This document shows positions 21,266 through 49,599 of a stretch of DNA of 64,000 bases, in pieces. Position 1 is the stretch's first letter; each line of letters opens with the position of its first letter. A program made the position numbers and the translations under genes. This DNA is from Trichoplax sp. H2 (lineage: Eukaryota), in NCBI GenBank assembly GCA_003344405.1, contig NOWV01000148.1, positions 1-64,000 of the forward strand, written 5' to 3'. The notes beneath the pieces were generated by a model, which saw only the letters and a list, made by a program, of their open reading frames with translations, made no database searches and was not told where the DNA came from.

Positions 21266-21879
21266 TTCTACTCCACGAAATGGGACTGTTCCACAATTTT
21301 CACTGAAGCGCAATAAAGTCAACACACCTTTTTTTTCAGCTTGTACAACAATATCAACTAGGCTGTTTACACCAAGCACCAATGATCAATTTTTGGCCTC
21401 AAAAGTGAGCTAAAAGCCAACTTGTACTCGGTATTTGATCACTCTTTTTGACTCGTTGAACTGGAAGAGAGAGTAATGGCGGACGTCTTGTCCTATCCAG
21501 AAGGAAGAATTGATGTTTTCCACTGACAGCAACGAGCTTATCGTGTGGTGTCAAGCGTCACGTTGATTCAATTGCAGTGGTGGGTGACTCGCTGCTGGTT
21601 GATCCAATGACAACCGATTGGAGTATTGTTATGCCGAAATTAATCTCAATTGATTGCCCAAAAGCAGTCACGTATCGTCACGTCATCATGTTGTGCCGTT
21701 TGACGCCCATGGTAGGTGACTGATTCATGTCATCTACTCACATACATCGACCTTCAACAGCGCATAGTAAACAACAACGGTGACCGAATCGTACCGAAGC
21801 AGTAAATGGTAATAAATAAATAAAAAAAAAAAGAAAATGATTAATTCATTACATTGATGCAAAATAATCCAGCTAAACA

Positions 21880-22350
21880 CTATACTGTACAGTGTACAGT
21901 ACAGTACTGAATGTGCAGTATCATTGCACGTTGCACGTACAATACTGGACTGTACAGTTATACAGTACTGTACGCTCAGTGGAGTGGAAAGTAATGGATT
22001 CGTCAATTATTCTGTTGACAAATAAAACTGTTTTTCTCTCACCGAAGGTGTGGAAATAGGTATGGTCCATTGGTCATGCATCATGTTGTACGCATGTTCA
22101 CGTTCGCGGCTTCAGTGCGCATGGACTATCGGCACTGCTCACGTTCGCGGCTTCAGAGCGCATGGACTATCGGCACTGTACTGTACAAAGTACTGTACAG
22201 TATAGTACTGTAGAGATCCTCTATTGTACAGTACTGGTCTGTACTGTACTGTACAGTATGGTACTGTTTACTGAGCCTAGCCTTGTATTGTACTGTACAC
22301 TGTACAATATGTTACAGACCGTCTGTACGACCGTCAGTCAGTACGGTACG
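21880..22350. promoter_or_regulatory. Divergent EEF2K/SVOP promoter with two low-complexity TACTGTACAG-type blocks
   Basis: Lies between head-to-head genes. Dense CTGTACAG/CAGTACTG palindromes at about 21880-21972 and 22175-22350. Confidence 0.55.
22098..22178. repeat. 41-bp tandem duplication (2 copies, 1 mismatch)
   Basis: TCACGTTCGCGGCTTCAG[T/A]GCGCATGGACTATCGGCACTG at 22098-22137 and 22139-22178. Confidence 0.95.
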
Positions 22351-22734
22351 GTCATGTCGCCCATTTTACTGGCTGGACAATTTCTAGCAGTAGTTATCTA
22401 CTATTTGGACAATGAAAATGGAAGGATCAAGAAGTCGACGTATACTATATTGTGTATTGTCCATCAGTTCCGTCGGCAATGCAATCAAGCAAGCACTAGG
22501 TAGTCCAGTTGAAACATCCATCACTTTTTTCTCCACTTGGTTTCAAATTGGAATAAAAAGAGTCTGTTGGCTAGAATCAAGTAGGCTTGCAGTAGTCGAC
22601 TGGAGGAGAGCGTCACATGTTTATACAGTCAAATCACTACTGTAGTGAGTGGTTTAAAAGTGGAATTCAACTCAGTCGTGTCATTACAGACAACTCAACT
22701 GCATCGCAGATCGCAAGCCGCCTCCTGCGAAACC

Positions 22735-27629: not shown

Positions 27630-30600
27630 TTAGCAATCATCAAGATAATTGCGACAATAAGATTTTGATATATTTCTAACGTATAGAAATAGCCTATTTA
27701 TTTGGATGATTTGGGTTAACAACAAGTAAGTATGATTAATTTCCACAGAAGTAGCCTCATTTTGCTTGCTATGATTATGATTAAGAATTCTCAAATTGTC
27801 ATTTGACTTGCTAATACGGAGATAATTTTGATTAAGAATTCTTAATTTTATTTTAATTGCCTTCAATTGCATAAAAATAGCCAGCTTATATTTACACTGA
27901 TAAGCATAGGCATTCCCTAGTTTGTTATGTAATGCAGCGACTTGTGGATAATCGTGACCAAAAATTGATAATTGAATTCTGAGTGACTGGTTGTACATAT
28001 AGATAGCCGCTTCGCTTTTACCCTGATCATAAAATACATTTCCCAGATTGTTATATAATGCAGCAACATCGGTATGATTGTGACTAAGTGCTGGCAATCG
28101 AATTTTGAGTGACTTCTCGTACATTGAAATAGCTTCTTCATACTTGCTTTGATTCGCATAAGCTAGACCAATGCTGTTATAAGACTTTGCGATGTCGAGA
28201 TGATTGTGATCGAGGACAGACAATCTAATTTTGAGTGATTTCTTGAACATAAAAACAGCTTCTTCATACTTGCCTTGATAATAATATACAGCACCCATTC
28301 TGTCATATGATATAGCTACTTCGAGAGAGTTGTGGTTAGTGAGAGATAATTGAATATTATGTGATTTTTCGTACATAGATATACCCTGCTCATGCTTTCC
28401 CGCCAAAGTATACACAACTCCCAGATTATTATACGAACTTGCAACATAGGGATGATTGTGATCAAGGACTGATAATCGAATTTTGAGTGATTTATCAAAC
28501 ATAGAAATTGCCTGTTTAAACTTTCCTCGATAAGCATAAACAGTGCCCAGGTTGCAATATGAATGAGCGATATCAGGATGATCGTGATCAAGGAGTAATA
28601 ATCGAATTTTGAGCGATTTCTCATGCATGGAAATAGCCTCATCTGACTTTCCCAGCATAAGATAATAATTTCCCAGATTGCTGTACGAATGGGCAACATC
28701 GGGATGATCATGACTAAGGACCAATAGTCGAATTTTGAGAGACTCTTTATGCATAAAAATAGCTTCTTCAAGCTTGTGTTGACGTCCATATAAATCTCCT
28801 AAAATGCTGTATGATCTGGCAACATCAGGATGATGGTAGCCAAGGGCTACCAATTGAATTTTAAGCGACTTATCGCTGATAGAAATAGCTTCTTCATATT
28901 TTCCCTGATTGTTATAGACAGAACAAATATTGCTATATGATTTAGCAACATCGGGATGATAGCGACCAAGGGCTGATAGTCGAATTTTAAGTGATTTCTC
29001 AAATATAGACAAAGCCTCTTCATACTTGCATAAACAACTATATGCAGCTCCCATGTTGTTATACACTATTGCGATATCTGGATGACTGGGACCAAGAACT
29101 AATGATTGAATTTCCAGTGATTTCTGAAACATGGCAATTGCCCTGGTATATTGGCCTTGTAGATGATGAGCAGTTCCGATATTGCCGTATGAATGAGCGA
29201 CATAAAGATGATTTACGCTAAAATTTGACAAATTGATTTTAAGCGACTTCTTAAACATAGAAATAGCCTCTTCATACTTGCCTTGGTCACAACACGCACC
29301 TCCTATGTTGTTGTATAATTTGGCAAGATCGGGATGATTGTGATCAAGGACTGTCAATAAAATTTTGAGTGATTTCTTATACATGGAAATAGCTTCATCA
29401 TGCTTGCCCTGATTACTGTATACCGCTCCCATGTTGTTATATGGTTCAGCAACAGCAAGGTAATTGTTACCACCAATTGACAATCGAATTTTGAGAGACT
29501 TTCTATACATAGTAATAGCTTCTTGATACTTTCCTACATGCACGTAAGCATGAGCAATACTGCTATATGTATTGGCCATAGTGGGATGATTGTGATCAAG
29601 GACCGACATTTGCATTTTGAGCGATTTCTCAAAGACAGAAATAGCTTCTTCGTACTTGCCTTGATCATTATACACATTTCCTAGATTAATATATATTGTG
29701 GCAATATCAGGATGATCATGGCCATGAGCTAATAACTGAATACTTAGTGACTTCTCGTACATAGAAATAGCCTCTTGATGTTTGTGCTGATAATAATACG
29801 TGATGCCTATGTTCATATATGTATCAGCAAGATCAAGATGATTATGACCAAAGACTGCTACTTTAATTTTAAGTGACTTCTCAAACATACGAATAGCCTC
29901 TTCGTGCTTGCCTTGACCACTGTAGGCAAGACCAATGTTGTTATATGAACTAGCAACATCAGGATGATTGTGACCGAGGACTGACAATTGAATTTCAAGC
30001 GATTTCTTAAACATAGTAACAGCCTCTTCACGTTTACCTTGACGATAATACGCTTTTCCTAAATTGTTATATAAAATAGCAATATCCGAATGATGATGGC
30101 CAAGAACTGATAGTTGATTTTCGAGTGTCTTCTTATACGTAGAAATAGCTTCTTCATAATTTCCCTGATCAATATAACTAAGACCAATGTTATTGTACGA
30201 TTGGGCAACATCTGGATGTTTATGATCAAGGATTGATAATCTAATTTTGAGTGACTTTTCTTGCATAGAGATAGCTTCATCATTCCTGCCCTGATATCTA
30301 TGGATAAGACTCATGTTGTTATATGATGTGGCTATGTCAGGATGATTGCATTGCAGGACTGAATTTCGAATTTTGAGGGAGTTCTCAAGCATAGAAGTAG
30401 CTTCCATTTGCTTCCCCTGCATAAAGTATAAAACTCCCAGGTTGTTATATGCCGAGGCTATGGATGGATGATTGTGATCAAAGATTGATAGTTTAATTTG
30501 CAGTGACTTCTCAATCATGGAAATAGCTTCTTCATTCTTGGCTTGATTACGGTACACCACTGCTATATTATTATATAATTTTGCAACTAGGCTATGCTTT

Positions 30601-32264
30601 TCACCAAAAATTAACAATCGAATCTTGAGAGATTTCTTAAACATATCTATAGACTCTTCTAGTTTACCTTGATCAAGGTACAAAGCTCCCATACTACAAT
30701 ATGATATTGAAACATCGGGATGATTACAGCCATAGATCGACAACTGAATTTTGAGTGATTTCTCATACATAGAAAGAGCCACTTCAAAATTGCCCTGATT
30801 TTGATAAACTATTCCGATGTTGTTGTATAATTTGGCAATTTGGGGATGATTATGCTGAAAGATTGACATTAAAATTTTGAGCGACTTTTCATACATAGAA
30901 ATAGCATCTTCATTCTTCATCATTTGATTATACGCATTTCCTATATTGCAATATGACTTCGCAACTTCGGAGTGCATGTCACCAAAGACAGATAATTGAA
31001 TTTCCAGCGACTTGTTAAACATAGAAATAGCCTCTTCATTTTTTTCTTGATCGACGAATACATTGCCTAGAGAGCTATAAGTTTTGGCTGTATCGGGATG
31101 TTTGTGACCAAGAGTCGATAATTGAATTTTGAGCGACTTCTCATACATAGAAATCGCCTCTTCATATTTATTCTGATCAGAAAAGATATTTCCAAGATGA
31201 AAATATGTTTTTGCAATATCGGGGTGATTATTCTCAAGAGCTGAGCATTGAATTTTGAGTGAATTTTCGTGCATGGCCATAGCTTCTTCGTACTTGTACT
31301 GATGGAAAAATACGTTTCCCATGTTATTATATAATTGGGCAACATAGAGATGATTGCGGCCAAGAATTGACACCTGAATTTTGAGTGACTTATGATACAT
31401 GGAAATTGCTTCCTTGTACTTAGCCTGTTCGTCAAGAACATTTCCTAGATAGTTATATGTTTTAGCAGTATCAGGATGATTGTGATTCAAAACTGATAGC
31501 TGAATCTTGAGCGATTTTTCATGCATAGTATAAGCTTCTTCGTATTTAGCCTGATGGTAATACGTATTTCCCATACTGTTATAGGATTGGGCAATCTCGA
31601 GATGATTTCCTCCAAGCACTGACAATTGAATTTTAATTGACTTTTCATACATTGAAACAGCCTCTTCATACTTGCATTGATCATCAAAAACATTTCCTAA
31701 ATAGTTATAGCTTTTTGCAACTTCGGAATAATTGTAATTTAGCACTGAAATTTGAGTTTTAAGCGATTTTTCATAGATAGAGTCAGCCAGTTTATATTTA
31801 CCAAGACAATAATCTACAACTTCCACCTCTTCGTACGAATTACTACCATATGAATTATCATTGCCCAAGTACCTTAACTTTTTGTCTAGTGATTTTATAA
31901 AATTATCTAATGCCCCTTTCCAATCTCTTTGCATTCGCTTAAATGTACCGTATCGGTCTAAACATCGAGCAATCACTATTTCGTTTTCCAGTTTTTGAGC
32001 TATATCTTGCGCTTGTTCAATCAATGGTTCAGCTTTCATCCATTCATTTTGCTGTAGATAGATGTCACTAGCACGTAAGCAAACATCGATTTGAAATCGA
32101 TGGAAATCGATGCTGCTTGTGGCCAAAGTTTGAACTTTATCCAAGACTAGCATATAGCAAGAAATCGCCTCATTAAGTTTGCCAAACTCATCATTTTCTT
32201 CGCCCGCCTTATAAAGTGAATTAATTTCTTCAGGGATACCAGCCATAGCAGATCGATTAGCCAT
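27630..32264 (-). CDS. Intronless 1544-aa TPR solenoid protein, about 32 tandem 42-aa repeats (KLC/NPHP3-type)
   Basis: Single ORF with consensus HPDVAKSYNNIGxVYxxQGKYEEAISMYEKSLKIQLSxLGHN and 126-bp DNA periodicity. It has a roughly 130-aa helical N-terminal cap and no recognisable enzymatic or NTPase domain. Confidence 0.92.
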   Translation of the reverse strand: MANRSAMAGIPEEINSLYKAGEENDEFGKLNEAISCYMLVLDKVQTLATSSIDFHRFQIDVCLRASDIYLQQNEWMKAEPLIEQAQDIAQKLENEIVIARCLDRYGTFKRMQRDWKGALDNFIKSLDKKLRYLGNDNSYGSNSYEEVEVVDYCLGKYKLADSIYEKSLKTQISVLNYNYSEVAKSYNYLGNVFDDQCKYEEAVSMYEKSIKIQLSVLGGNHLEIAQSYNSMGNTYYHQAKYEEAYTMHEKSLKIQLSVLNHNHPDTAKTYNYLGNVLDEQAKYKEAISMYHKSLKIQVSILGRNHLYVAQLYNNMGNVFFHQYKYEEAMAMHENSLKIQCSALENNHPDIAKTYFHLGNIFSDQNKYEEAISMYEKSLKIQLSTLGHKHPDTAKTYSSLGNVFVDQEKNEEAISMFNKSLEIQLSVFGDMHSEVAKSYCNIGNAYNQMMKNEDAISMYEKSLKILMSIFQHNHPQIAKLYNNIGIVYQNQGNFEVALSMYEKSLKIQLSIYGCNHPDVSISYCSMGALYLDQGKLEESIDMFKKSLKIRLLIFGEKHSLVAKLYNNIAVVYRNQAKNEEAISMIEKSLQIKLSIFDHNHPSIASAYNNLGVLYFMQGKQMEATSMLENSLKIRNSVLQCNHPDIATSYNNMSLIHRYQGRNDEAISMQEKSLKIRLSILDHKHPDVAQSYNNIGLSYIDQGNYEEAISTYKKTLENQLSVLGHHHSDIAILYNNLGKAYYRQGKREEAVTMFKKSLEIQLSVLGHNHPDVASSYNNIGLAYSGQGKHEEAIRMFEKSLKIKVAVFGHNHLDLADTYMNIGITYYYQHKHQEAISMYEKSLSIQLLAHGHDHPDIATIYINLGNVYNDQGKYEEAISVFEKSLKMQMSVLDHNHPTMANTYSSIAHAYVHVGKYQEAITMYRKSLKIRLSIGGNNYLAVAEPYNNMGAVYSNQGKHDEAISMYKKSLKILLTVLDHNHPDLAKLYNNIGGACCDQGKYEEAISMFKKSLKINLSNFSVNHLYVAHSYGNIGTAHHLQGQYTRAIAMFQKSLEIQSLVLGPSHPDIAIVYNNMGAAYSCLCKYEEALSIFEKSLKIRLSALGRYHPDVAKSYSNICSVYNNQGKYEEAISISDKSLKIQLVALGYHHPDVARSYSILGDLYGRQHKLEEAIFMHKESLKIRLLVLSHDHPDVAHSYSNLGNYYLMLGKSDEAISMHEKSLKIRLLLLDHDHPDIAHSYCNLGTVYAYRGKFKQAISMFDKSLKIRLSVLDHNHPYVASSYNNLGVVYTLAGKHEQGISMYEKSHNIQLSLTNHNSLEVAISYDRMGAVYYYQGKYEEAVFMFKKSLKIRLSVLDHNHLDIAKSYNSIGLAYANQSKYEEAISMYEKSLKIRLPALSHNHTDVAALYNNLGNVFYDQGKSEAAIYMYNQSLRIQLSIFGHDYPQVAALHNKLGNAYAYQCKYKLAIFMQLKAIKIKLRILNQNYLRISKSNDNLRILNHNHSKQNEATSVEINHTYLLLTQIIQINRLFLYVRNISKSYCRNYLDDC

Positions 32265-33598
32265 ACTTTAGAAATCTTATAAAAATAGATTAGTTCAATA
32301 TCAGACAATTCACACATGTAACTTCGAAAAGTGTATATGAAAATTGTTATAAATCCCTCATAATTCTATTAGTAGTGATTGGTGTTACAATATAAACAAT
32401 TTAAATGTTTTGGATGATGTAAGAGAACACTAGTGGCCAGGCATTGATCTAAACGCCAAAGGGTTACAGTAAGAAGTGAATAAGCAAGTACATACTTGAC
32501 GTATAAGGTCTATATCTCGTATAATGACATTGATATGTCTTAGATCCTAGCAAACTTATCTTAATAAATTAGAGTTAAAGTGTAACTGTAACGTACTAAT
32601 AAGGTGCGTAATAGTTTACATTTAAGTTTAAGCAAGTTTCAAATTGCTGTGATGCGTGTAGGAATTGTAAGCTAGTCTAAGAGATGTGAGTTTCTTTCAA
32701 AATGTCTAAATATTATTTGTATTTTCGTATTAATTTACGAGATTAAAGATACAGCTGAATTCAAAAAAAAATTTAGCAAATTACTTTAGATCTTTGAAGG
32801 CTTTTTATAGTATGAGAATATAATTTACTAGACATCAAATTATTATGCAGGTTTAACATTTGAAAGCGTTCCTTGTTGGAGCAATAATTGATTGAAGAGA
32901 TTTTGTAACGTGAGTCTGAAATTATTTATTTCCTCCTTAGTTTTATGAGAATTACTTCTGAATACTACTAATTTGGATAGGGAAATACTTGAATAAAAAA
33001 CAACAAAAATATAAAAAATATAAATATCTATACGGATGCAGCCTCAATTCAAAAAGCTTTACCACTAAGAATACAAGATTTTTTTCATATCTGTATAGCT
33101 TCTAATTCAACGTAAAATTTAACCCGTCAGTATCAATTTGACATATGCATATATATATTCAAGATTGACATGACTTACGATCTAAGATATAAATCAGATA
33201 GACAAATGAGGTAGATTTCTCTCCTTTTAGATCTACGAAAATGTTGTTCTTAACGTAATCTATAAAACTTGTTATCCAATGGTATTTCAAGTTTGTAATA
33301 ATTAACTGGTAAGCTCTGCAACACTATACAATATAGTACTAGCTACAACGCTCGTTTTACGAACAAATAATTCAATGCTTAAATTATGTAGCTCAATTTT
33401 ACAGTGATCAATGCTTAATATATTGCAATGTATATTTTATTTAATAGAGTTAATAGAGTTTTAGAAGAGTATTAGGATGAGTAAGAACGGGAGGAGTAGT
33501 CGGGTTTACTAATGTACACAGTAGACGGTGCACAATGTACTGAATATATGAACATATCATAATAGACCACAAGTTGTAACTTATATGGAAGGTAGTAG

Positions 33599-36805: not shown

Positions 36806-37662
36806 ATGGATGATGATGAATTTCAAATCGTAGTCGCTTCCTCGGATTAAATGAAATAGATTATGAAGATGACAGAAAATGAAGGTTGAAATCCTGGATG
36901 TAAAGATGCAATGACTTTTTCAACTAGCTGATCCAATAGGTCAGTTTGTCGCCTTACTCAAACGGATGAGCTAAAGGTTGTCTTACAGTAATCAACTATG
37001 AAGATTTTGCATTCGATGAGCAATATATTTTGAAGAAGGAACACCGTGATAAATGCTATGGTATGAAGCTCTCTCAGCATGCACGGAAGTACTGGAAGAA
37101 ATTTGAAAATTATAGACTCGAAGCAGTGCCTCAACAAGTCGTAACTATCAAAAGTATTTGGACCTTCAAATTTATCATCGTACTATGCGATATGCTGGAG
37201 TAGTAAGTAAGCCATACACTCAGTGTAATGCTGTTATGGATGCTAAAAGTATCTCTTTCGACAAATCGTTACAATATGATCGAAGCCATTCGCCTAATCT
37301 TAGAAAGTATTTTCTAGTTGTGTGGATTAATCTAGCAACAGATCGTAGCTTAGTCTATTTAGACGATGATCAAGTTATCCAACAATTTGGTGCCATACGC
37401 AAAGGTATTGATAGCTATAAAAACGGTACTTTGTATGCAGAAAGTTTTCAAATGGCCGATAGCTTAATTCATACACTAGCAGGAACGTATGAAAATTGTA
37501 AAGTGGTCTTAGATGCACCAATACCTCAATAAGAATGCTATTAAACTTATTAAAACATTACAATTACAAGAAATATTAGAAATCATTAGAATGCATACTA
37601 ACTAATTCCTTACATACGATTTGAATACAGTTTAAGGTCTTATCTGTTTGGAACTTGGATAA
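36806..37662 (+). pseudogene. GNAT acetyltransferase pseudogene (tandem copy of 38912-39763)
   Basis: Colinear with the intact copy from MDDDEFQIVVASSD to CLELG*. Carries premature stops (TAA about 36848, TAG about 36857, TGA about 36887) and frameshifts. Confidence 0.93.
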
Positions 37663-38911
37663 AGTTTAAATAGATCCAATTTATAGCTTACTAGCAAATC
37701 GTCATGTTGGATAATTCTACAGTATACCTTGTAACTGAAAAATAAGGGTTAAATTTTCTAAATATATTGCCGTCGTTAGAGAACAGTGCTAAATGTTATA
37801 CCTACTTATTGAGATTATCAATCTGTAATGTCTATTAGGATAAGATCAATAAAGTACTAGCGCGTAACATCGTCTCTATTTTCAGCCTTCATCTTCTTGG
37901 AAATGATCTAGAATGACTCCTACTCTCTCTTTAGGGCTATCTTTCTTGGCTTGTCGAAGATAAGTATCTCTTTTCGTCTTCCATTGTAAAATCTACTGGC
38001 GCAGCGGCACTAAAGATCAAGAGATATTTAAAAGTAAAATAATTTACTCCATTTGATAATGACGGCTATACTCCAATATAAGTAGGATATCAAGATTACC
38101 TGTGCTAAATGTAATTGTCGTTTATTTTAAAATTATTTGGACAATATAAAATGCACTATTGTAATTATAATATGCTCTTTACTGAGCCATTGGCTAACAT
38201 TAGAGAATGGTCATTATATATATATTATGTTATGTAAATGTAAACTTTGTCCCTTATGTTTTCCTCTTGATAACCAATCATCTGCCTATGTATATCCGCA
38301 TATCATATGATATTAAAGTAAATTAGCCATTTGTTTAGCGCCTGACATTGTTACTACTCCTTGGTCACAGCATGATTATGATGGAAATGAGTCTTACCAG
38401 TAGGAGTACAGGATTCTTCTCAATCATTACTTTGTAGCTGCTCGATTCAAGGTCTTATTGTCACAGACTTTGCCGTCGTCCATTCCGAAACGAACGCAGA
38501 AAAATCCATCGTCGACTACAAATCGATTATTTATCGTCTTTATTCAGTGTGGAATACGAGACATACTCATTCACTGTAGATAAAAGTAATTCGTTACTTA
38601 AATCTGCTTTAATCGAAATTAAAATATTGTAGGTTAAATAAATTTTTTCAATCTGTTTTATATCAATGGTTAATACAGCATTTACCATACGATCAAAATG
38701 ATGTTGAGCAACAAAATGTACTGCATAAGCGAGCATTACCACTCTATCTTTAAAATTTTACAATGAAATAAAGTTCTTACCACAGTATATTCTACTGCTC
38801 AGCCCGTCCTACCATCAAAACGACTTGTTGTTCTTCAGTTTTATTAGGTTTCATCACAATAACCTAGCTTTTTTTAATTTAGGCTAAAACCTCCCCAAAT
38901 AAGAAAACAAG

Positions 38912-39763
38912 ATGGCTAGTAATGAATTTCAAATTGTAGTTGCTTCTTCGGACCAAGTGAAATGGATTATGAAGATGGTAGAAGATGAAGGCTGGAACCC
39001 TGGATGCAAAGATCCGATCACTTTTCAACTCTCTGATCCATTAGGCATCTTTGTTGGCTTACTCAACGGAGAAGTTATCGGCTGCGTAGCAGGAGTCCAG
39101 TATGAGGATTTTGGTCATGGTGGGTTATATATTATGATGAAAAAATATCGTGGTAAAGGCTATGGCATGAAGTTATTTCTGCATGCATTGAATCGTTTAC
39201 GAAAAAGTCCAAAATTTGGATTAGATGCAGTGCTTGAACAAGTCAGTAATTACCAAAATGCCGGTTTTCAAACTTTTCATCACACTATGCGATATATTGG
39301 AATAGTTAGTAAGCCAGATTTTCCGTGCAATCACATTGTAGATGCTAAAAGTGTCTCTTTCGACAAATTGCTACAATATGATCGATGTCATTCGCCTGGT
39401 CTTCGAAAGTATTTTCTAGCAGCATGGATTAATCTAGGAACAGATCGTAGCTTAGTGTACTTAGATGATAATCAAAATATTCAAGGGTTTGGTGCTATTC
39501 GTAAAGCTAATGATGGCTATAAAATCGGACCTTTGTACGCAGAAAGTTTCCAAATTGCCGAAAGTTTAATTCATGCGTTAGCAGGCACATTTGATAATTG
39601 CAAACTGGCCTTGGATGTACCCATACCTAATAAAAGTGCTGTAAAGCTTGCCGAGAAATTACAATTAAAGGGAGAATTTGAAACCGTTAGAATGTGTTAT
39701 ACTCAACCCTTTACATACGATTGGAACACGGTTTATGGTCTTACTTGCTTGGAACTTGGATGA
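38912..39763 (+). CDS. Two-domain GNAT N-acetyltransferase (YitH/Acetyltransf_18-like), intronless CDS, 283 aa
   Basis: EGWNPG, acetyl-CoA motif A YRGKGYG, LDAV..QVSNYQNAGF, GFGAIRKA..GYKIGPLYAES, LDVPIPN and C-terminal CLELG are the pattern of the bacterial YitH-like double-GNAT family. Confidence 0.88.
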   Translation: MASNEFQIVVASSDQVKWIMKMVEDEGWNPGCKDPITFQLSDPLGIFVGLLNGEVIGCVAGVQYEDFGHGGLYIMMKKYRGKGYGMKLFLHALNRLRKSPKFGLDAVLEQVSNYQNAGFQTFHHTMRYIGIVSKPDFPCNHIVDAKSVSFDKLLQYDRCHSPGLRKYFLAAWINLGTDRSLVYLDDNQNIQGFGAIRKANDGYKIGPLYAESFQIAESLIHALAGTFDNCKLALDVPIPNKSAVKLAEKLQLKGEFETVRMCYTQPFTYDWNTVYGLTCLELG

Positions 39764-41807
39764 GTTTAGATTAAGCTAAGGACACGAAGCTGTAACGTAA
39801 CTTAGTATTGTGATTGTAGACTGTTAGCCATGTTTAGTATAATGTACGGTAGCGTAACTTCTATATTTATCCTAAGAGATATTTGGTAACCATAACTATA
39901 GACTGTAGTGGCGTAGACTCTATGCTAGAGTACAGATGACTATATACATTAAGGTCTTGAGTTACTAATAAGGTTATAGGTAAAAATAGAACTGTAAATC
40001 ATATATTAGGATATGGTTACTTCATTGTATTTTGGCTGGTGTGACTAATGTCTACGTAAATACTATAGTCGTATCCATATCAATTAATGATGGTCCGCAG
40101 TAGAATTGTGTTACTAAGAATAATTTAAGTATGTGTAAAATAAGGTAACAGGTTGCCGTGCTGATTGTAGCTGCGAATGCTACGAAAAGTATAAAATCAT
40201 GCAACTTTAGATTATTCAGTTAGTTCGTTCTAGAAGTCTTTAGTAGTAGTATTCGGCTAGAGTAGAGCTGTGTAGTTACTCTTTGTATAAGATTCAATAA
40301 AGCCCTTATTTTTCTAAAATTTGGAATTTCGTGATCGGTATATATCACAGAAGCGCACGAAGCTTCAAGTACTTGACTGCTAATGTATAACTGTACTTGT
40401 GGGTAATAAACTGTTTTCATGTAGTAGACTCATAAAATAGCTCACAATATTAGCGTGATGATATACAATCGCATATTCCATACCAGTAATCCCAATTTCC
40501 TCTTAATAAACGATACCATCATCTTGAATTAGCTAATACATGCTGTCGTCATATAAAGATCACAACTTTCATGATGATTACGACAGTATGAATTACCGGA
40601 AAAATTGATAGTACCTCAGATCTGCAACAATTTATTAAGATGCGATTGAAAATCTTAATATGCATTTATTACACTTTCATGAAGTAATTCTAATAAGTTG
40701 CATATATAATATTACATGCTTAACAAAATCATAGAAATTAACAACTCTTCACATTTGCCTCATATTCTTAAACTATACTTATTTATTATTGATTTTGTCA
40801 GTAGATTATAACCACTTTTCATGTAACAAGGTTGTAGTACAGCCCCAAATATATCTAAGACTATAATTATTAGATTATACGAAAATTGATCAATTGTATG
40901 TGAGATTGTAAGATAATAAATTATAGTCTAATTCCAGATAGATAGTCTTTAGTAGTTGTTAGAACCTAACTTACGTAATAAAGTAAAATTATCAAGAATT
41001 TTAGAGCTCGCCTTAATTTTGAGAAGACCCTTTATAGCAAATGTAGCGTATACTGGTAAATATATTGATATCTATTTCGTCATTACTGCCGTAACTGACG
41101 AAATAGACTTCACCCAATTAAACAATTTAAGTATGTTTAACTTATTTAAATTCATTTTACCTACCTCAATCATTTTCCAAACCATACAATATGCATATAG
41201 TAGCTAATCGGCAGTATTTACTCAGACTTAACGAGTACATCAAAATCATTGACGAGAAACACATATTTCTGAAAATAGTTATGAAGTGACAAATTCTTAT
41301 AAACATCAAACATCTTATCTTGACCACGAGCACAATATTAGAGAATATCAAACATTAAGATGATCTGTTCTAATAATTTTATTATAGTATAACTACATTT
41401 TAAATATAGAGTAAAATCTGGAATAAATAATATTAACCATTTTAAATTACTGTGCAAAAGGAGCTGTATAATAACTCATTATTTATATTATATTATCGTA
41501 CAAGTCAAATTGGGTGATAAACAAGCTATTAGTCACTCTTATCTTTGCTAACTCGATAAATAACCTTAGCCTTCAATGTCTTTACAATGCTGTATACGCG
41601 CATTATCCATACCTTGACAAAATATGATCATGTTAAACATTTCTATCATTAAAGTACAAGCAGCATTTTTCATAAAATAGATCTACTGACTGTTACTGTA
41701 GGTATTATTAAAATTAGTTTGTGTACCCATACGATTATTTATCCATCAGGCTATCATCTATTAGGTAGATTGTTAGACAAATCAACTTTCGTATATTAGG
41801 AGGATCT

Positions 41808-42646
41808 TTAGTGGCATGTAAAGCTATAAATTTTCAATAAATCGACGATAGGAGCCTCGCCAGTGTATAAAGTTCCAAATTTAAATACTTAGACTAGCTT
41901 TAACTTTTCTACTAATGCCTTTCCATGATTATTCGTTTCTGGAAAGTCGAGAGTAATCCTACAATCACTTTTGTGTTGACAAAGAGACTTTAACAAAATT
42001 TCTGCAATTTCTGGTGTTTCAGCCTAAAGTGGGCCTATACGATAACCATTAACACTTTTTCTAATTGCTTCGAAGCCTTTCACTGTATCTTTATCCATAT
42101 AAGCTAAGTAATCTGTTGTTCCAGCATTGATCCTCCTGCTAAAAAGTGTTTTCTCTCATCTGCATAAAATCGTGCATCGTATTGCAGAATTTTATCGAAT
42201 GGTACACTACTAGCTGTATAAACGAAGGGGCAAGATATTGTACTATTATCCACAGCTCCTGTATATCGAACATTGACATGAGCCATTTTAAAACCAGAAT
42301 TCTGATATTTAGGTGCATGAATTAGTAGTCCATCGACTCGAACATTATATCCATTCAAGTAGTTCACTGAAAGTTGAAATATTCTCATGCCATGACCTTG
42401 ACCACGATGTTCTTTGACAACAACATAGTATCCAATAATAGCAATATGATTAAATTTTACTCCAGCTACACAACACACCGGCTTACCATTGATAAGGCCA
42501 ATAAAATATCCACTGGGATCAGCTTGTTCAAATGCGATTGCATCATTATCACCAGGATTCCATCCTTCTTTCCTAGCCATAGAAATGATCCATTCGACTT
42601 GATCGGACGAAGCTGATACTATCTCAAGATTGGAATTTTCTGCCAT
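41808..42646 (-). pseudogene. Divergent, inverted GNAT paralogue, pseudogenised in its C-terminal half
   Basis: The N-terminal 170 aa are open (EGWNPG, HRGQGHG). A 1-nt deletion near 42133 follows, then GYRIGPL*AETPEIAE (TAG 42024-42026), a TAA at 41889-41891 and another frameshift. Confidence 0.88.
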
Positions 42647-42923: not shown

Positions 42924-45380
42924 TTAACAACACGATTTAATGGCGTCAAAGTTAATGCAATCAATAGTCCGATAAGCTATGATTGATGCTTTAGAAAGAG
43001 ACGACGCTTTGGCGGTCGCTGTCAGAACTCCTCCTTTTTTAGTTAATACTTGGTGATCCATGTCATCTAAGCATTGATAAATAAAACCTTATAGCAATGC
43101 TGTGATCGCTAGCATAATAACTTCAAAATCTAGAATGTTTAGTAACATAAATTTAGTGGGAAATTGAAATTCCTTCAAATTTCGATGCTACAGTATGTGG
43201 CAAAATTGAATTATACGCGTAAATAAAAATTTTTGAACAGTAGTAACATAATCGTACATGGCAAGATTAAAGCTAGCTCTTAAAGTATTTCCGATGCGCA
43301 ATCATTTGTAGCAAGTTACCATAAATGATTCGAAGCTCACACGATCACGATAAGATCTGCTATTAGTCGTTTATGTCAACCATTATCTCGTTTTTAATCA
43401 GAATATTCAAGTCAGGAGATTGATTTATAGGTATTTAATACTACGATACTAGGATACTATGCAGATATTACGTAAATTTCAATTTTTACCTGTTAATGCA
43501 GTTTCAGCGTGGAATATTTGTATACCAGTAAATGTAGCAGCTTTATTAATACTATGAATTTCAACATCAGTCTGGTATGGTCTAGGGTAACCTCTACTCG
43601 CTAATACTACTCCTACAACATAATCCGGATGCCATTCAACGATACGATTCAAGTTTTGCTTGATGCAATCTTCCAGAATATTGAACAAGTCGCTTTTCAG
43701 TAAGGGTAGTAAAACCTAAAGCAACATGACAGCGCTCTTCACACTAACGCCTATTCTTAGTATTTCTAGTTTATGAAAGAATAGCTGAATACAATTTATT
43801 TGCTAATACTATTGAAATGAAACCCAAATGGTCCTACCAGGCAATCAATCAGCCATTAGGCATGTACTGCTATTTCTTGGAGTTTTACCTGCGCTTCAGG
43901 ATTACCCAATCTACAATTGAACTCTAATACTTTCGGACCATCATTTGTAAGCATTATGTCTACATACAAGATCCCGTCATATGGATGACCAAGGCTTTTC
44001 ATTTTTGAAATGATTTTGAATATAATTTCTTCCCCGATACATCTGTCATCGTCATCTGAAATCTAATATCGGCATGTTACAAAAATTAGAAGGCTTTATT
44101 AATGGCTTGCTTACAGGATAATGGGCTTATTCTGGTTGCATTTTAGCATAATTATAGAAATTCATGTTAATATTACAACTTTCAAGTGTAGAGCTATCTT
44201 TGCAAAATTCATCTATGAATACTAACCTTAGTATATGGAGCAAATACCCTCATTCCTCCTGTAATTGGACCTAAATCGCCATCGTATAGTCTCTTATAAT
44301 CGTGGATGTGTGGCATTATGCTGACATTAACCCCATCGCAGAAAGCTAGAACCTAATAAAAATCGTGCGCATATATTTAGCCTTTATTGCAATCTACGAT
44401 CGGATGAGCCGTAAATCCTTCAGAAAGGGAAAAGCACAGCATATTTCTTGATTAATGACTAGCCCGTTACCGAGATTCATCTCCATGCAAGCATTCTTCA
44501 ATAATCTTTTTCTCTCCAAATTTATTATTCTGTATGGAACAAGAATAGTCAAGACACTATTACTGTTGATTGTTTCGAGCTCGTTCAAGTAACTTGAAAG
44601 ATAAAATCTACCGCAAAATGATAGCTGTAATACGTACTATTAAAATATCGATGATAGCTGTTTCCGCTTCTTCTTGACTACAACAAATAGCAATACCTTT
44701 TCCAGCTGCAAGGCCATTTGCTTTAATAACGTAACGAGATTGTTGATGCTACGATTAAAAGAAAAAATAGCTTGGATCATTTTGTGTGCTGTACCGCTTG
44801 TGGTGTTGTAATTAATCACAATCTTCCTGAAGCGACAGAATTTAAAGTAAGTATGACTACTAGTGCGGCAATGGTCGTTTTTAAGTAAGTAATTTATGTG
44901 CATGAATAGTCTACTGTAAAGGTTAATTTAGTTAGAACTATCAACTGTGTATCTAATATTTCATCAGGTTCAGTTGATGAACATAATTAAATCCGTAATC
45001 CTATTAGTAAAAACCTAGGTACTGAATCTTAAATATCCAGTTAATTGCCTCATATAAAATGACACAAATATTTAGTATTAGCCTATAGATTTTGTAATTA
45101 ATTCAAACAAGAATTAACTATAATGGAAACTACATGGATGATCAAGAACATACGCGTAAATTATTTATTACTGGATAGTACATTACATAAATCGTGACAT
45201 AATCCTTTGAGACAGACTAATGAAAACGTGAGTAATTCCGCTGAATTTACGCTATGAACTGACAGTTCATGTAGAATATCTATTTATTGTATCTTCTTCG
45301 ATTAAGCTATTTCTAAGTGGTTATTCCTGTCATGGCTTAAATTGGTTTAATTTCTGCTGCCTTTCAGTCGGACTACTAGA
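42924..45380 (-). pseudogene. Spliced phosphoribosylamine-glycine ligase (GARS/PurD domain of GART) pseudogene
   Basis: Exons encode YVIKANGLAAGKGI (about 44750-44638), KIIEECLHGDE plus frameshift (about 44530-44471), AFCDG..DYKRLYDGDLGPITGGM (44352-44228), GILYVDIMLTNDGPKVLEFNCRLGNPEAQ (44062-43889), LLPLLKSDL..VVLASRGYP..IFHA (43715-43490) and VLTKKGGVLTATA..INFDAI (43066-42924). A frameshifted PT..AAEI remnant lies near 45350-45380. Confidence 0.85.
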
Positions 45381-46927: not shown

Positions 46928-48586
46928 TTACGATACTTCACTATAGAAACGATTGGACCTGAATGGATTTCTAGGCTTAATGTAGTTCCAAAATACGGAA
47001 GCAACGACTACAATAGCGAGACAAGTAATCAGAGTAATGCCCATAATCACTGCTGGTGACACAAAATTAATTCTTCCATAATTAGGAATTTTCCGACATG
47101 GTATGTGAGCGAAATTTGCCAATTGGTTTGGTATATCCAAATAGCTTAAATATGCAGGAGTGCATGTAGGATCTTGACAATGATTTTGGTAACCGCAGTC
47201 GCATTCCTCACCGTCATCGATTATTCCATTGCCACATACAGGGTAGTACTGATCCACAAAACAGCTTTGCTGACTTCTTGCTTTATTCAGTAAGGTGTGA
47301 TAAATTGATTGCCGACTACACGGGGAGAATAATAGATTATTTCTTTGCTTTCCGCTTGTAACCGTAGAATGCATTAAATAATCTCCATGACTTCCTCCAG
47401 AAGAGCATCGATGGCTAGCATTATCATGATTCGCACCAAATATGTGGCCCATTTCATGAGCCATGATTAACAGTCTTATTGGGTAGATTAAGGAGCTTCG
47501 ATAACGAGAGATAGACATTAGACCAACATTAGAGCTAGATCGGAGGTGATTGTATTGATAATGATATCGTGTGCATACACCCTGATCTGCTTCATAACCG
47601 CTACTGGCTATTCCAGTTACTTTTAGAGTAAACTGATGATCGATTAGTAGAAACGCCATACAGTACGAGCTGTAATTATAAAGAGCTGTCCAGTTGCCGA
47701 AGTAATATTTTGGATCATCTATATTATCTAAACGACTGAAATTTCTCTTAGCTGAAAAACTTTGTACAGCAAAGCCAATTCCATCCGCTTTGCCATCGCC
47801 GTTAAAATCTGTGCGTCGATAGATCAGGTTAACACCTTGCAATAACACAGAAGCACCAATCAAAGCATGAAATTGGTCCCCATATCGTTGGACAACACGA
47901 TGATCAATTTCAATACGAGCTAAACAGGTAGTTTTATTTGTATCTTTTTTAGTTTGTTCCGAAAATTTTTTCTTACGCAGAAGATGACTATGCAAATTTG
48001 AGGAAGAAAATGACTCTAATGGATCGAAAAGCCATGGTCCGCTTTCTGCTTCTCCACGTCCCTTCCTTGATCGATGTTGAATATCAACATCTCGGTAGAT
48101 AATAAACGAATTACGATCGATGAGATTCCTGATATAAAATAGACTATATTCAATGTAATATTTAATTTTGTTGTGGATAAATACACCTTGAAATTGACCG
48201 GATGGATAAATGTAACCGTAGGCCTCCGATGTTGGATAAGATTCGACAAATCCCTGTACAAGATGGTGGTGATCGAATAATTTAACAGAATTTGGATCTA
48301 AGTCAAGAATGAAATTATCATGATAAAGAAGTGGTTGACTACGTAGAACTAATGGGAAAGTTTTTTTATAGGCATGAACTTGAATTCGGAAGCGATATGC
48401 AAGATTAGTTTTAATATCGGAAGTATTGGTCGCCACTTTAGAATACCCAGAAAATTCTGCATATTCGTAATTTTTAAGATATAGTATAGATGATTGCCTT
48501 TGCTGCCATTGTAATGCAAGTGTAAACGATTGGATATCAAATACACAAATTAGTAACAAAGTGACAATAAATCTGGCTGATGGCAT
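46928..48586 (-). CDS. Intronless ADAM10/17-like membrane metalloprotease, 552 aa
   Basis: Signal peptide, prodomain, basic cleavage sites (RSRKGR, RKKK), zinc motif HEMGHIFGANHD, Met-turn GDYLM, NNLLFSPCS, disintegrin start CGNGIIDDGEECDCG, TM helix AVIMGITLITCLAIVVVASVFW and a short tail. Confidence 0.9.
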   Translation of the reverse strand: MPSARFIVTLLLICVFDIQSFTLALQWQQRQSSILYLKNYEYAEFSGYSKVATNTSDIKTNLAYRFRIQVHAYKKTFPLVLRSQPLLYHDNFILDLDPNSVKLFDHHHLVQGFVESYPTSEAYGYIYPSGQFQGVFIHNKIKYYIEYSLFYIRNLIDRNSFIIYRDVDIQHRSRKGRGEAESGPWLFDPLESFSSSNLHSHLLRKKKFSEQTKKDTNKTTCLARIEIDHRVVQRYGDQFHALIGASVLLQGVNLIYRRTDFNGDGKADGIGFAVQSFSAKRNFSRLDNIDDPKYYFGNWTALYNYSSYCMAFLLIDHQFTLKVTGIASSGYEADQGVCTRYHYQYNHLRSSSNVGLMSISRYRSSLIYPIRLLIMAHEMGHIFGANHDNASHRCSSGGSHGDYLMHSTVTSGKQRNNLLFSPCSRQSIYHTLLNKARSQQSCFVDQYYPVCGNGIIDDGEECDCGYQNHCQDPTCTPAYLSYLDIPNQLANFAHIPCRKIPNYGRINFVSPAVIMGITLITCLAIVVVASVFWNYIKPRNPFRSNRFYSEVS

Positions 48587-49599
48587 AATCAGGTTGGAAT
48601 ATCTTCTAGGAATATTTTACGCTAATTTTTTGACCACAATTCTATTTAAAACTGGCTAATTTTACTTGGGAAATCTCGTGCGACGACAGTAATCTATTCG
48701 AATTTCAAAAATGTTTAAATGAATTGGAAACTAGATGTCGATTGAGTGGGAATGGCTTATTCTTGAATGAATCCATTGATATCATATGAACTTTTCTTCA
48801 ATAACAATTATTGCATAATTAATACCAATGTAATATGACGAGATTGAGAGTCAATATGGATTCTTTTCATTGTCGTGAATTGAGAATTAGATAGAAAGTA
48901 ATAGAGGAACTGATAATTATGATCATTGTTTACAGTTTATAGCAGTCAGCATCATTGATTGCTATATAGTAGGCGGGTAAAACGAATAATTTAAGATGGA
49001 ACTAATTTCAAGGAAAAATAAGGCTTATGATATAGTAGGCTGGAAACAGAGTCTTCCTTGCTTCTTATGTACGATATCATATCAGTACCATATAAAAGTA
49101 ACCATAACATACATAAAATACTTCATTAATATAGCATTACTTAAGGTAAGTTATGTAAAAAGAAGATACAAGAAGAAATATGACTAAACAAACAAATCTA
49201 TTTACGCCTGCACAGTATTAGAAAATTATTTAGAATTTCCATTAAAGATGCAAGCATTAACCAATGAATTATTTATTTTAATATACTTCTTGTTATGATT
49301 TGAGAAATTTTGTTCTTTACACGCGTAGTTTGGTTCATTTCCATACTTAACAATTTTAATCTGGGTACACTTCCTCTTAATATTTAACTTTTATACAGTC
49401 TAGTACCTACACAGTTTACGACGTCAATCACAGCATACTTTCTCTTCATCGTTAATTATTGTGTGGCACTTCAGTATATTAAAATGCTGATATTATTCAT
49501 TCTCATGAAGATATAAATATATGAAAAGGATGTAAAATTAACAAAATATTAATTATGAGCACTAGGAATTTGTATGAAGGACTCATTGGATGCAAAATG

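Follow-up and report, generated by a model that had tools for sequence, protein, structure and literature searches.

We analysed a window of 64,000 nucleotides (nt) from Trichoplax sp. H2 (contig NOWV01000148.1, positions 1 to 64,000), which holds an intact gene for a predicted N-acyltransferase with two GNAT domains in tandem. The gene is real, expressed and long domesticated; its family is known but has not been characterised, and it shows birth and death of an ordinary kind. Our reading, to which we give a probability of about 0.55, is that this is a nuclear, domesticated gene from a multigene family of prokaryote-type tandem GNATs that is old in placozoans and is engaged in the N-acylation of small molecules in feeding cells. 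A first-pass annotation, made from the sequence alone, had described three homologues within 6 kb, and one intact open reading frame (ORF) with two dead copies beside it was indeed found there (tblastn E-values of the dead copies, 4e-59 and 2e-53). The features of the locus, in coordinates of the window and with the evidence for each, are as follows.

38912..39763, plus strand: intact tandem GNAT gene (predicted N-acyltransferase) of 283 amino acids (aa); Pfam match, 98% identity to TRIADDRAFT_62132, structure model, 3DDD match.
38600..38628, plus strand: 3' end of an untranslated upstream exon (5' end undefined); the 29 nt on the shorter side of the X4 joint.
38629..38882, plus strand: GT..AG spliceosomal intron of 254 nt in the 5' untranslated region (UTR), with a polypyrimidine tract before the acceptor; joint in run X4, window sequence.
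36806..37662, plus strand: pseudogene 1, a long-dead tandem duplicate of the intact gene; nucleotide identity, gaps, stops, codon-position divergence.
41808..42646, minus strand: pseudogene 3, a recently dead copy of the P0011 / TRIADDRAFT_61618 lineage; 258/279 aa identity, lesions.

The 283-aa protein is 98% identical to TRIADDRAFT_62132 of T. adhaerens, and the next named matches in the homologue search were Trichoplax paralogues. Both Pfam domains passed their cut-offs, Acetyltransf_1 (PF00583) in the N-terminal part (E 8.8e-11; 42.6 bits, cut-off 20.7) and Acetyltransf_18 (PF18014) in the C-terminal part (E 1.8e-26; 92.7 bits, cut-off 22.7), as the first-pass family assignment had it, and the motifs quoted there are present. 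Motif A (R80-G81-x-G83-x-G85) and Y114, the helix-4 tyrosine of GNATs, are in the N-terminal domain, and the chain ends with E281-L282-G283. NCBIfam held no family for any of the five proteins scanned, and Rfam gave no match within 33-47 kb of the window. As for the comparison with the T. adhaerens orthologue, 7 of the 283 residues differ, and the other live paralogues differ at 0-4 residues. Four of these substitutions (H69F, Y73F, S99C and F102I) map to strands 4 and 5 of the first domain or close to them; at position 69, H is uncommon (F in 358 of 390 aligned rows). The differences are too few for a test, and divergent alleles are common to the two lineages.

In a contig of run X4, position 38628 is joined to position 38883 and the 254-nt GT..AG intron is skipped. 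The joint was found in one of the four runs (X4) and was absent from X18, X9 and X1, of which X1 and X9 cover all 30 bins; note that the assignment of X4 as an RNA run is a guess, backed by the splice joint and by 11 empty bins of the 30. The GC content at third codon positions (GC3) of the intact gene was 0.29, and that of two neighbouring single-ORF genes was 0.32 and 0.29. Because the gene has a spliced 5' UTR intron and host-like GC3, we regard it as nuclear and not as contamination. The copies had been called intronless in the first-pass annotation; this holds for the coding region, which is intron-free, and does not hold for the 5' UTR. That annotation had itself raised the alternative of a chimeric contaminant, and a bacterial contamination or chimeric join of the segment now has a practically negligible probability. 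The best named non-placozoan matches are prokaryotes, and no single contig of the four runs reaches from the intact gene to a flanking animal gene; however, the alternative is refuted by the spliceosomal intron, by the orthologues in four species and in a second Trichoplax assembly (where the T. adhaerens orthologue pair sits on a 449,862-bp scaffold), by the even DNA depth of X1 (54-67 across most bins of 32.5-39.3 kb), and by the pseudogenes and the host repeat at the locus. Parts of the intact gene were also covered in X18, and low-depth contigs of X4 were found over both pseudogenes; expression cannot be ranked from contigs, and the ones at pseudogene 3 may stem from its paralogue.

The conservation of the protein was counted in an alignment of 390 rows. 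R80, G85 and Y114 are conserved in 379, 384 and 375 rows, respectively, and motif A (R80, G83, G85) together with Y114 is kept in 363-384 rows; the second domain is without such a motif. At the chain end, E281 is found in 330 rows (D in 13 more) and G283 in 351, and the complete ELG end in 272. In the P0011 lineage the ELG end is missing and the chain terminates with TCH, which corresponds to the position of residue 280; judging from the alignment, the terminal carboxylate of this lineage would lie near the same place as the ELG acid. The structure model, built from 150 aligned sequences (predicted local distance difference test score, pLDDT, 96), matched the fold of 3DDD from Pyrococcus horikoshii with Z 30.1 (root-mean-square deviation 2.3, 266 aligned residues), and the next row had Z 19.5. 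In both fold searches, model residue 280 or 281 closed the aligned range, opposite residue 455 of yeast NMT (Z 17.6) and residue 402 of Eis (Z 13.1). Motif A (R/Q-x-x-G-x-G) of the GNAT superfamily binds acyl-CoA. The C-terminal carboxylates of NMT and Eis are described as catalytic bases (PMC4964394, PMC7048800, PMC8556138), and in the structure model the conserved C-terminal E-L-G appears to sit where NMT and Eis hold this carboxylate. In the mechanism we propose, the N-terminal domain would bind acetyl-CoA or a short acyl-CoA via motif A, and the acceptor amine would occupy the cleft between the two domains. The C-terminal tail would fold back and the acid at 281-283 would deprotonate the amine, like the C-terminal carboxylate of NMT and Eis; Y114 would protonate the departing CoA, and the second domain would be structural.

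The family is present in all four placozoans of the atlas of Najle et al. 2023. In the supplement to that atlas (PMC10580291), orthogroup OG_5559 has 17 genes (T. adhaerens, 4; H2, 4; Hoilungia, 5; Cladtertia, 4) and OG_5558 has 5 genes in 3 species, and the module table contains three further T. adhaerens genes with both domains. The placozoan clade was supported with 100/100 in our trees, its paralogues are 36-70% identical, and we infer that the family joined the lineage before the Trichoplax/Hoilungia/Cladtertia split, at the placozoan stem or earlier. In the same module table, the T. adhaerens orthologue (TriadG62132) belongs to a gland module (score 0.546), and the 18 rows with Acetyltransf_18 are distributed over lipophil (6), epithelial (4), gland (3), peptidergic (1), unknown cell type (1) and unannotated (3) modules, with none in fibre modules. 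Lipophil or gland modules thus take up 9 of the 18 family rows, compared with 15.5% of the 29,593 rows of the table (binomial p 7e-4, with rows that are non-independent, being in part orthologues). Lipophil cells are described there as taking part in algal digestion, and gland cells as mucus cells with a chymotrypsin marker (PMC10580291). No account of the family in placozoans was found in the literature searched, which was mostly without subscription papers, and nothing of relevance came up in term searches of PMC6784892, PMC6067683 and the PMC11452194 supplement.

We propose that the role of the enzyme would be the acylation of small amines, food-derived or microbial, during the external digestion of biofilm by gland and lipophil cells, and that the paralogues would be distributed over cell types. 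A small amine is the likeliest acceptor by analogy with HlmA and HolE. HolE, the GNAT of the pTML1 hol cluster (identified by gene order), matches the window protein over its full length (28% identity over 279 columns, E 4e-33) with a common ELG end, in agreement with the relation to holothin acyltransferase that had been stated in the first-pass annotation; the amine of holothin is acylated by HlmA, for which acetyl-CoA is a better donor than longer acyl-CoAs (PMC3826145). An unlikely rival is that the enzyme serves an intracellular symbiont, or acetylates host proteins, and does not act on dietary small molecules. Symbiont maintenance was proposed for other bacterial-like GNATs (Driscoll et al., PMC3641634) and the protein-acylating NMT is among the top fold matches, whereas none of the 18 module rows is in a fibre-cell module, the location of the symbiont according to PMC10580291, and HlmA and HolE, the only characterised sequence relatives named here, both acylate a small molecule. 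An action on metabolites of food or symbionts had been suggested from the sequence; the link to feeding cells (9 of 18 rows) speaks for the former, and the symbiont part found no support in the module table.

Several points weigh against small-amine acylation by a domesticated enzyme of feeding cells. Tandem GNATs of the NMT and Eis type act on proteins too. The 5' UTR intron rests on one contig of X4, the presumed RNA run. In the atlas table, the H2 counterpart TrispH2_010074 (assigned through its orthogroup) is absent from all modules, and the other 9 of the 18 family rows are in other or unannotated modules. The 28% identity of HolE is below that of many uncharacterised prokaryotic members (41%). 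The fold ranges that set the chain end against the carboxylates of NMT and Eis consist of first and last aligned residues and hold no atomic distances. Finally, no conserved pathway was found among the neighbours of prokaryotic members (81 of 96 neighbours scanned, 53 loci), where the commonest match was to allantoinase PuuE (4) and others were to nagA (2) and panB (2). The PuuE-like gene adjoins the family gene in the loci L036, L049, L055 and L067, which belong to one alphaproteobacterium, two chlamydiae and one Pseudomonadota.

Among the best 120 of 553 matches in the homologue search, the named rows beyond Trichoplax were prokaryotes with up to 41% identity; a deeper search was used with its best 150 of 2,709 matches. 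In the first tree (FastTree), two proteins of 300 aa adjoined the placozoans, and searches with them led to a clade of 86 rows with one named member, 'F36G3.2' of Geodia barretti; the whole clade is probably sponge. This Geodia-containing clade (P0282-P0393) represents a large expansion of the 300-aa form, with up to 7 rows from contigs of one and the same length. Further neighbours were Tritrichomonas, Paraphysomonas and a gene whose contig also carries WD40 and Ion_trans genes split into exons. Both domains also occur in an atlas cluster of 444 proteins, 95% of them eukaryote and most of them nematode, and a table on nematodes (PMC9025465) lists genes named F36G3.2. No match to the window protein was found in a GTDB scan, and 80 loci were retrieved with a cyanobacterial alignment as query. 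A profile search for the longer forms found no named animal sequence among 7,529 candidates. No relative was found in IMG/VR or in 50,697 phage records; 54 plasmid records matched, mostly large non-mobilizable replicons.

Likelihood trees were reconstructed with 84 rows selected from ~390 proteins and 83 loci (10 placozoan-clade, 13 sponge-clade, 17 other and 44 named prokaryote rows), with no nematode, cnidarian or choanoflagellate member; the bootstraps were unconverged, and the first approximately unbiased (AU) test was performed with 5,000 replicates of resampling of estimated log-likelihoods (RELL), below the advised number. Under the LG+F+G4 model, the placozoans were grouped with the sponge clade, Tritrichomonas and two further rows (84.5/76), and the grouping of placozoans and sponges alone had 10% in the ultrafast bootstrap (UFBoot). 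In the free tree under the posterior mean site frequency (PMSF) model, the placozoans were beside the Paraphysomonas group and HolE (71.5/62, bootstrap unconverged). All named eukaryotes were on the placozoan side of one split (99/75 under LG, 91.6/80 under PMSF); this side also holds Streptomyces, Reyranella and HolE, and thus the eukaryotes do not form one clade. The placozoan clade was regrafted onto fixed backbones for AU tests. On the LG backbone under PMSF, 25 of 83 placements were kept, 45 of 46 all-prokaryote placements were rejected, and the placement as sister to sponges was the best (p-AU 0.85). On the PMSF backbone, 22 of 64 were kept, and 27 of 29 prokaryote-only placements were rejected, the two kept being those next to HolE and to Streptomyces + Reyranella. 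Over the tests, p-AU was 0.33-0.85 for the sister-to-sponges placement (0.33 on the PMSF backbone), 0.20-0.52 for Streptomyces + Reyranella, and 0.22-0.37 for the placement next to HolE, which was never best or supported; no prokaryotic placement was supported among the 44 named prokaryotes sampled. A cyanobacterial donor, at which the top BLAST match and the initial FastTree had hinted, was rejected on regrafting (p-AU 0.034, 0.038 and 0.003). As for segment lengths, R197-P207 has 11 residues in all 10 placozoan and all 44 prokaryote rows, compared with 12-17 in all 13 sponge-clade rows, and R127-D157 has 31 (placozoan and prokaryote type), compared with 34-44 in the sponge clade; in total, three segments are longer in the 13 sponge-clade rows, and the placozoans keep the prokaryote-type lengths. 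All 10 placozoan rows scored 171-229 bits with named prokaryotes and 140-185 bits with the sponge clade.

The trees name no donor, and they neither support nor reject a kinship of the placozoan and sponge genes. The claim of horizontal acquisition by placozoans was therefore not upheld, given that no donor was found, that relatives occur in sponges, nematodes and protists, and that the sister-to-sponges placement is kept; transfer of the family into placozoans is possible. Nor was an ancient clade with conserved coding introns found, to which the first-pass annotation had tied vertical descent; the placozoan proteins keep the segment lengths of prokaryotes. A transfer from a bacterium at the placozoan stem, independent of sponges, nematodes and protists, is an explanation we hold at somewhat less than even odds. 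It agrees with the higher bit scores to prokaryotes than to the sponge clade and the prokaryote-type segment lengths, with the intron-free coding sequence, with the free PMSF tree, in which placozoans and sponges are not grouped, with the prokaryote-dominated clusters that the atlas rows for the window protein represent, and with the retained placement next to Streptomyces + Reyranella. However, almost all prokaryote-only placements were rejected on both backbones and no donor emerged, best BLAST scores favour slow-evolving rows, and the insertions in sponge rows may be sponge novelties.

Equal credence is given to the presence of the gene in a sponge-placozoan or wider eukaryote ancestor, with retention by microbe-feeders and loss elsewhere. 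The LG grouping with the sponge clade, Tritrichomonas and two further rows (one of which is from the contig with exon-split WD40 and Ion_trans genes) points to it, as do the sister-to-sponges placement, best on the LG backbone and kept on the PMSF backbone, the position of the named eukaryotes on one side of a split and the 444-member, mostly nematode cluster with the same two domains. On the other hand, the low UFBoot value for placozoans and sponges alone, the presence of Streptomyces, Reyranella and HolE on the eukaryote side, the possible attraction of long branches, the lack of an insertion common to placozoans and sponges, and trees that hold no nematode or cnidarian sequence all count against such an ancestor. 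A transfer from protist prey or a protist neighbour into the placozoan stem appears improbable: the best placements on the PMSF backbone adjoin the Paraphysomonas-containing group (p-AU 0.74-0.82) and a placement next to the Tritrichomonas group was kept, but the former group had 71.5/62 with an unconverged bootstrap, and few of its rows have taxon names and all are long branches. A composite scenario, which we consider doubtful, starts with the capture, at the placozoan stem, of a bacterial acyltransferase that acts on natural products in the manner of HlmA and HolE. The gene would then have acquired the 5' UTR intron, multiplied and been divided among gland, lipophil and epithelial cells, where the enzyme would disarm amine-bearing compounds of the biofilm food; sponges, nematodes and protists, which also eat microbes, would have captured the family separately, and an NMT/Eis-like C-terminal acid would be the catalytic base in all of them.

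The two pseudogenes agree with the local birth and death that had been proposed, and they show that pseudogene 1 goes back to an old local tandem duplication, and pseudogene 3 to a later copying of a paralogue that lies on another scaffold. Pseudogene 1 had been taken for a close duplicate; it is in fact long dead, with 77% nucleotide identity to the intact coding sequence, 10 gap runs and 7 internal stops. Its divergence by codon position is nearly flat (0.216/0.201/0.262), and therefore most of the divergence postdates its death; no blastn similarity of its flanks was reported past ~10 nt. Pseudogene 3, the inverted copy, has 43% aa identity to the intact gene and is identical at 258 of 279 aa to the live paralogue P0011 on another scaffold, with X at three lesions (a frameshift near 42133 and stops at 42024-42026 and 41889-41891). 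By its sequence it is a member of an old paralogue lineage that died recently, so that the description of this copy as older is correct for the lineage and not for the death, and the ages of death are the reverse of those in the first-pass annotation. The frameshift is no error of this assembly, because the record P0127 of T. adhaerens has the same frameshifted 180-aa product (7 of 180 residues different). One further feature lies next to pseudogene 3.

43400..44750, minus strand: decayed partial exons of GARS (purine synthesis); Pfam GARS_A and GARS_C pieces, altered motifs.

These motifs were called altered relative to what we take to be the canonical GARS motifs. The summed DNA depth at 40.4-45 kb is about twice that of the flanks (X1, 76-130 compared with 57-62; X9, 101-319 compared with 82-108), although summed depth is no copy number. 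Because of this roughly twofold depth and the GARS exons in the same stretch, we infer that 40.4-45 kb is a segmental copy from another locus, in which pseudogene 3 and the GARS exons were probably co-duplicated. The RNA contigs at 43400-44750 have many differences and one GT..AG joint (43428->43569), and they probably derive from a live copy elsewhere. The other neighbours of the intact gene are the following.

39791..40349, plus strand: solo-LTR-like (long terminal repeat) insertion of 559 bp, multi-copy; TG..CA ends, target duplication GAAGC (5 bp), loose run ends.
27630-32267: TPR gene, single ORF of 1545 aa with a regular 126-nt repeat, 4.5 kb left of the locus.
46928-48616, minus strand: ADAM-like metalloprotease, single ORF; Reprolysin, truncated Disintegrin, predicted membrane segment.

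The 559-bp element starts 27 nt past the stop codon of the intact gene and has no long inverted ends. Loose contig ends were found at both of its borders in all four runs, its summed depth is very high, and in X1 up to 17 contigs with other flanks were found at one border. A contig of X4 extends from 38883 into the element, to 39819. An AATAAA at 40296 inside the element may supply the poly(A) site of the intact gene; the next one downstream (40405) was displaced by the element. Surveys of Trichoplax describe few classified transposons and many unclassified repeats (PMC2871265, PMC6057997), and few LTR elements are reported in published surveys. The nearest neighbours of the locus are the single-ORF TPR gene, the decayed GARS exons and the single-ORF ADAM-like gene, which is a possible retrocopy, and not the intron-rich housekeeping genes mentioned in the first-pass annotation; exon-split ankyrin and alpha-kinase genes are 15-25 kb from the locus. 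At the window start (53-827) there are decayed pieces of the 126-nt repeat of the TPR gene, a further family that turns over locally. The stretch 21734-22503, which lies upstream of the alpha-kinase gene, is rich in ACAGT/ACTGT repeats and has a 41-nt tandem pair; an abundant ACAGT motif is mentioned for Trichoplax (PMC2871265). Between pseudogene 1 and the intact gene, the minus strand at 37880-38520 has a splice-like donor and acceptor and higher GC; a possible two-exon frame there (37.9-38.5 kb) has stops in all frames and may overlap the 5' exon of the intact gene.

The locus itself shows gene turnover of an ordinary kind, in a family that has been annotated but not characterised. It offers a candidate family of chemical-handling enzymes of placozoan feeding cells, and a catalytic proposal, in which a C-terminal acid acts as the base, for a family with members in bacteria, archaea, sponges, nematodes and protists. 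It also calls for caution, since a bacterial best hit and an intron-free coding sequence fell short of a demonstrable transfer here; repeated capture by microbe-feeding eukaryotes, if true, would illustrate well how convergent acquisition can be linked to diet.

Among known systems, NMT and Eis have the tandem GNAT fold in common with the window protein and their C-terminal residues align structurally, but the identity is 8-11%, the size is different, and there is no sign of a common substrate. Two other genes on Trichoplax scaffolds, GNAT_1 and GNAT_2, are likewise intron-free, bacterial-like and proposed transfers (Driscoll et al. 2013, PMC3641634); their products have 143 and 148 aa with a single domain each (XP_002109557.1, XP_002108249.1), and they belong to another family than the window gene. 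The likeness to HlmA (Streptomyces clavuligerus) and HolE (Pseudoalteromonas pTML1) consists of the full-length homology of HolE and the ELG end; HolE is a long branch and no supported sister of the placozoans, and no genes of a dithiolopyrrolone non-ribosomal peptide synthetase (NRPS) cluster were found among the window ORFs or in the Pfam scan of the neighbours. The proteins like 'Uncharacterized protein F36G3.2' (sponge, nematode) have the two domains in common with the window protein, and members from Trichoplax H2 and Geodia barretti bear this name; the sponge-clade proteins have ~300 aa with three longer segments, which the placozoan proteins do not have. The prokaryotic PF00583 + PF18014 tandem GNATs (bacteria and archaea; 3DDD) are like the window protein in domains, fold and segment lengths, with at most 41% full-length identity, and the placozoan gene differs from them in being nuclear, with a 5' UTR intron, and multi-copy with pseudogenes, and in having one paralogue lineage that ends with TCH.

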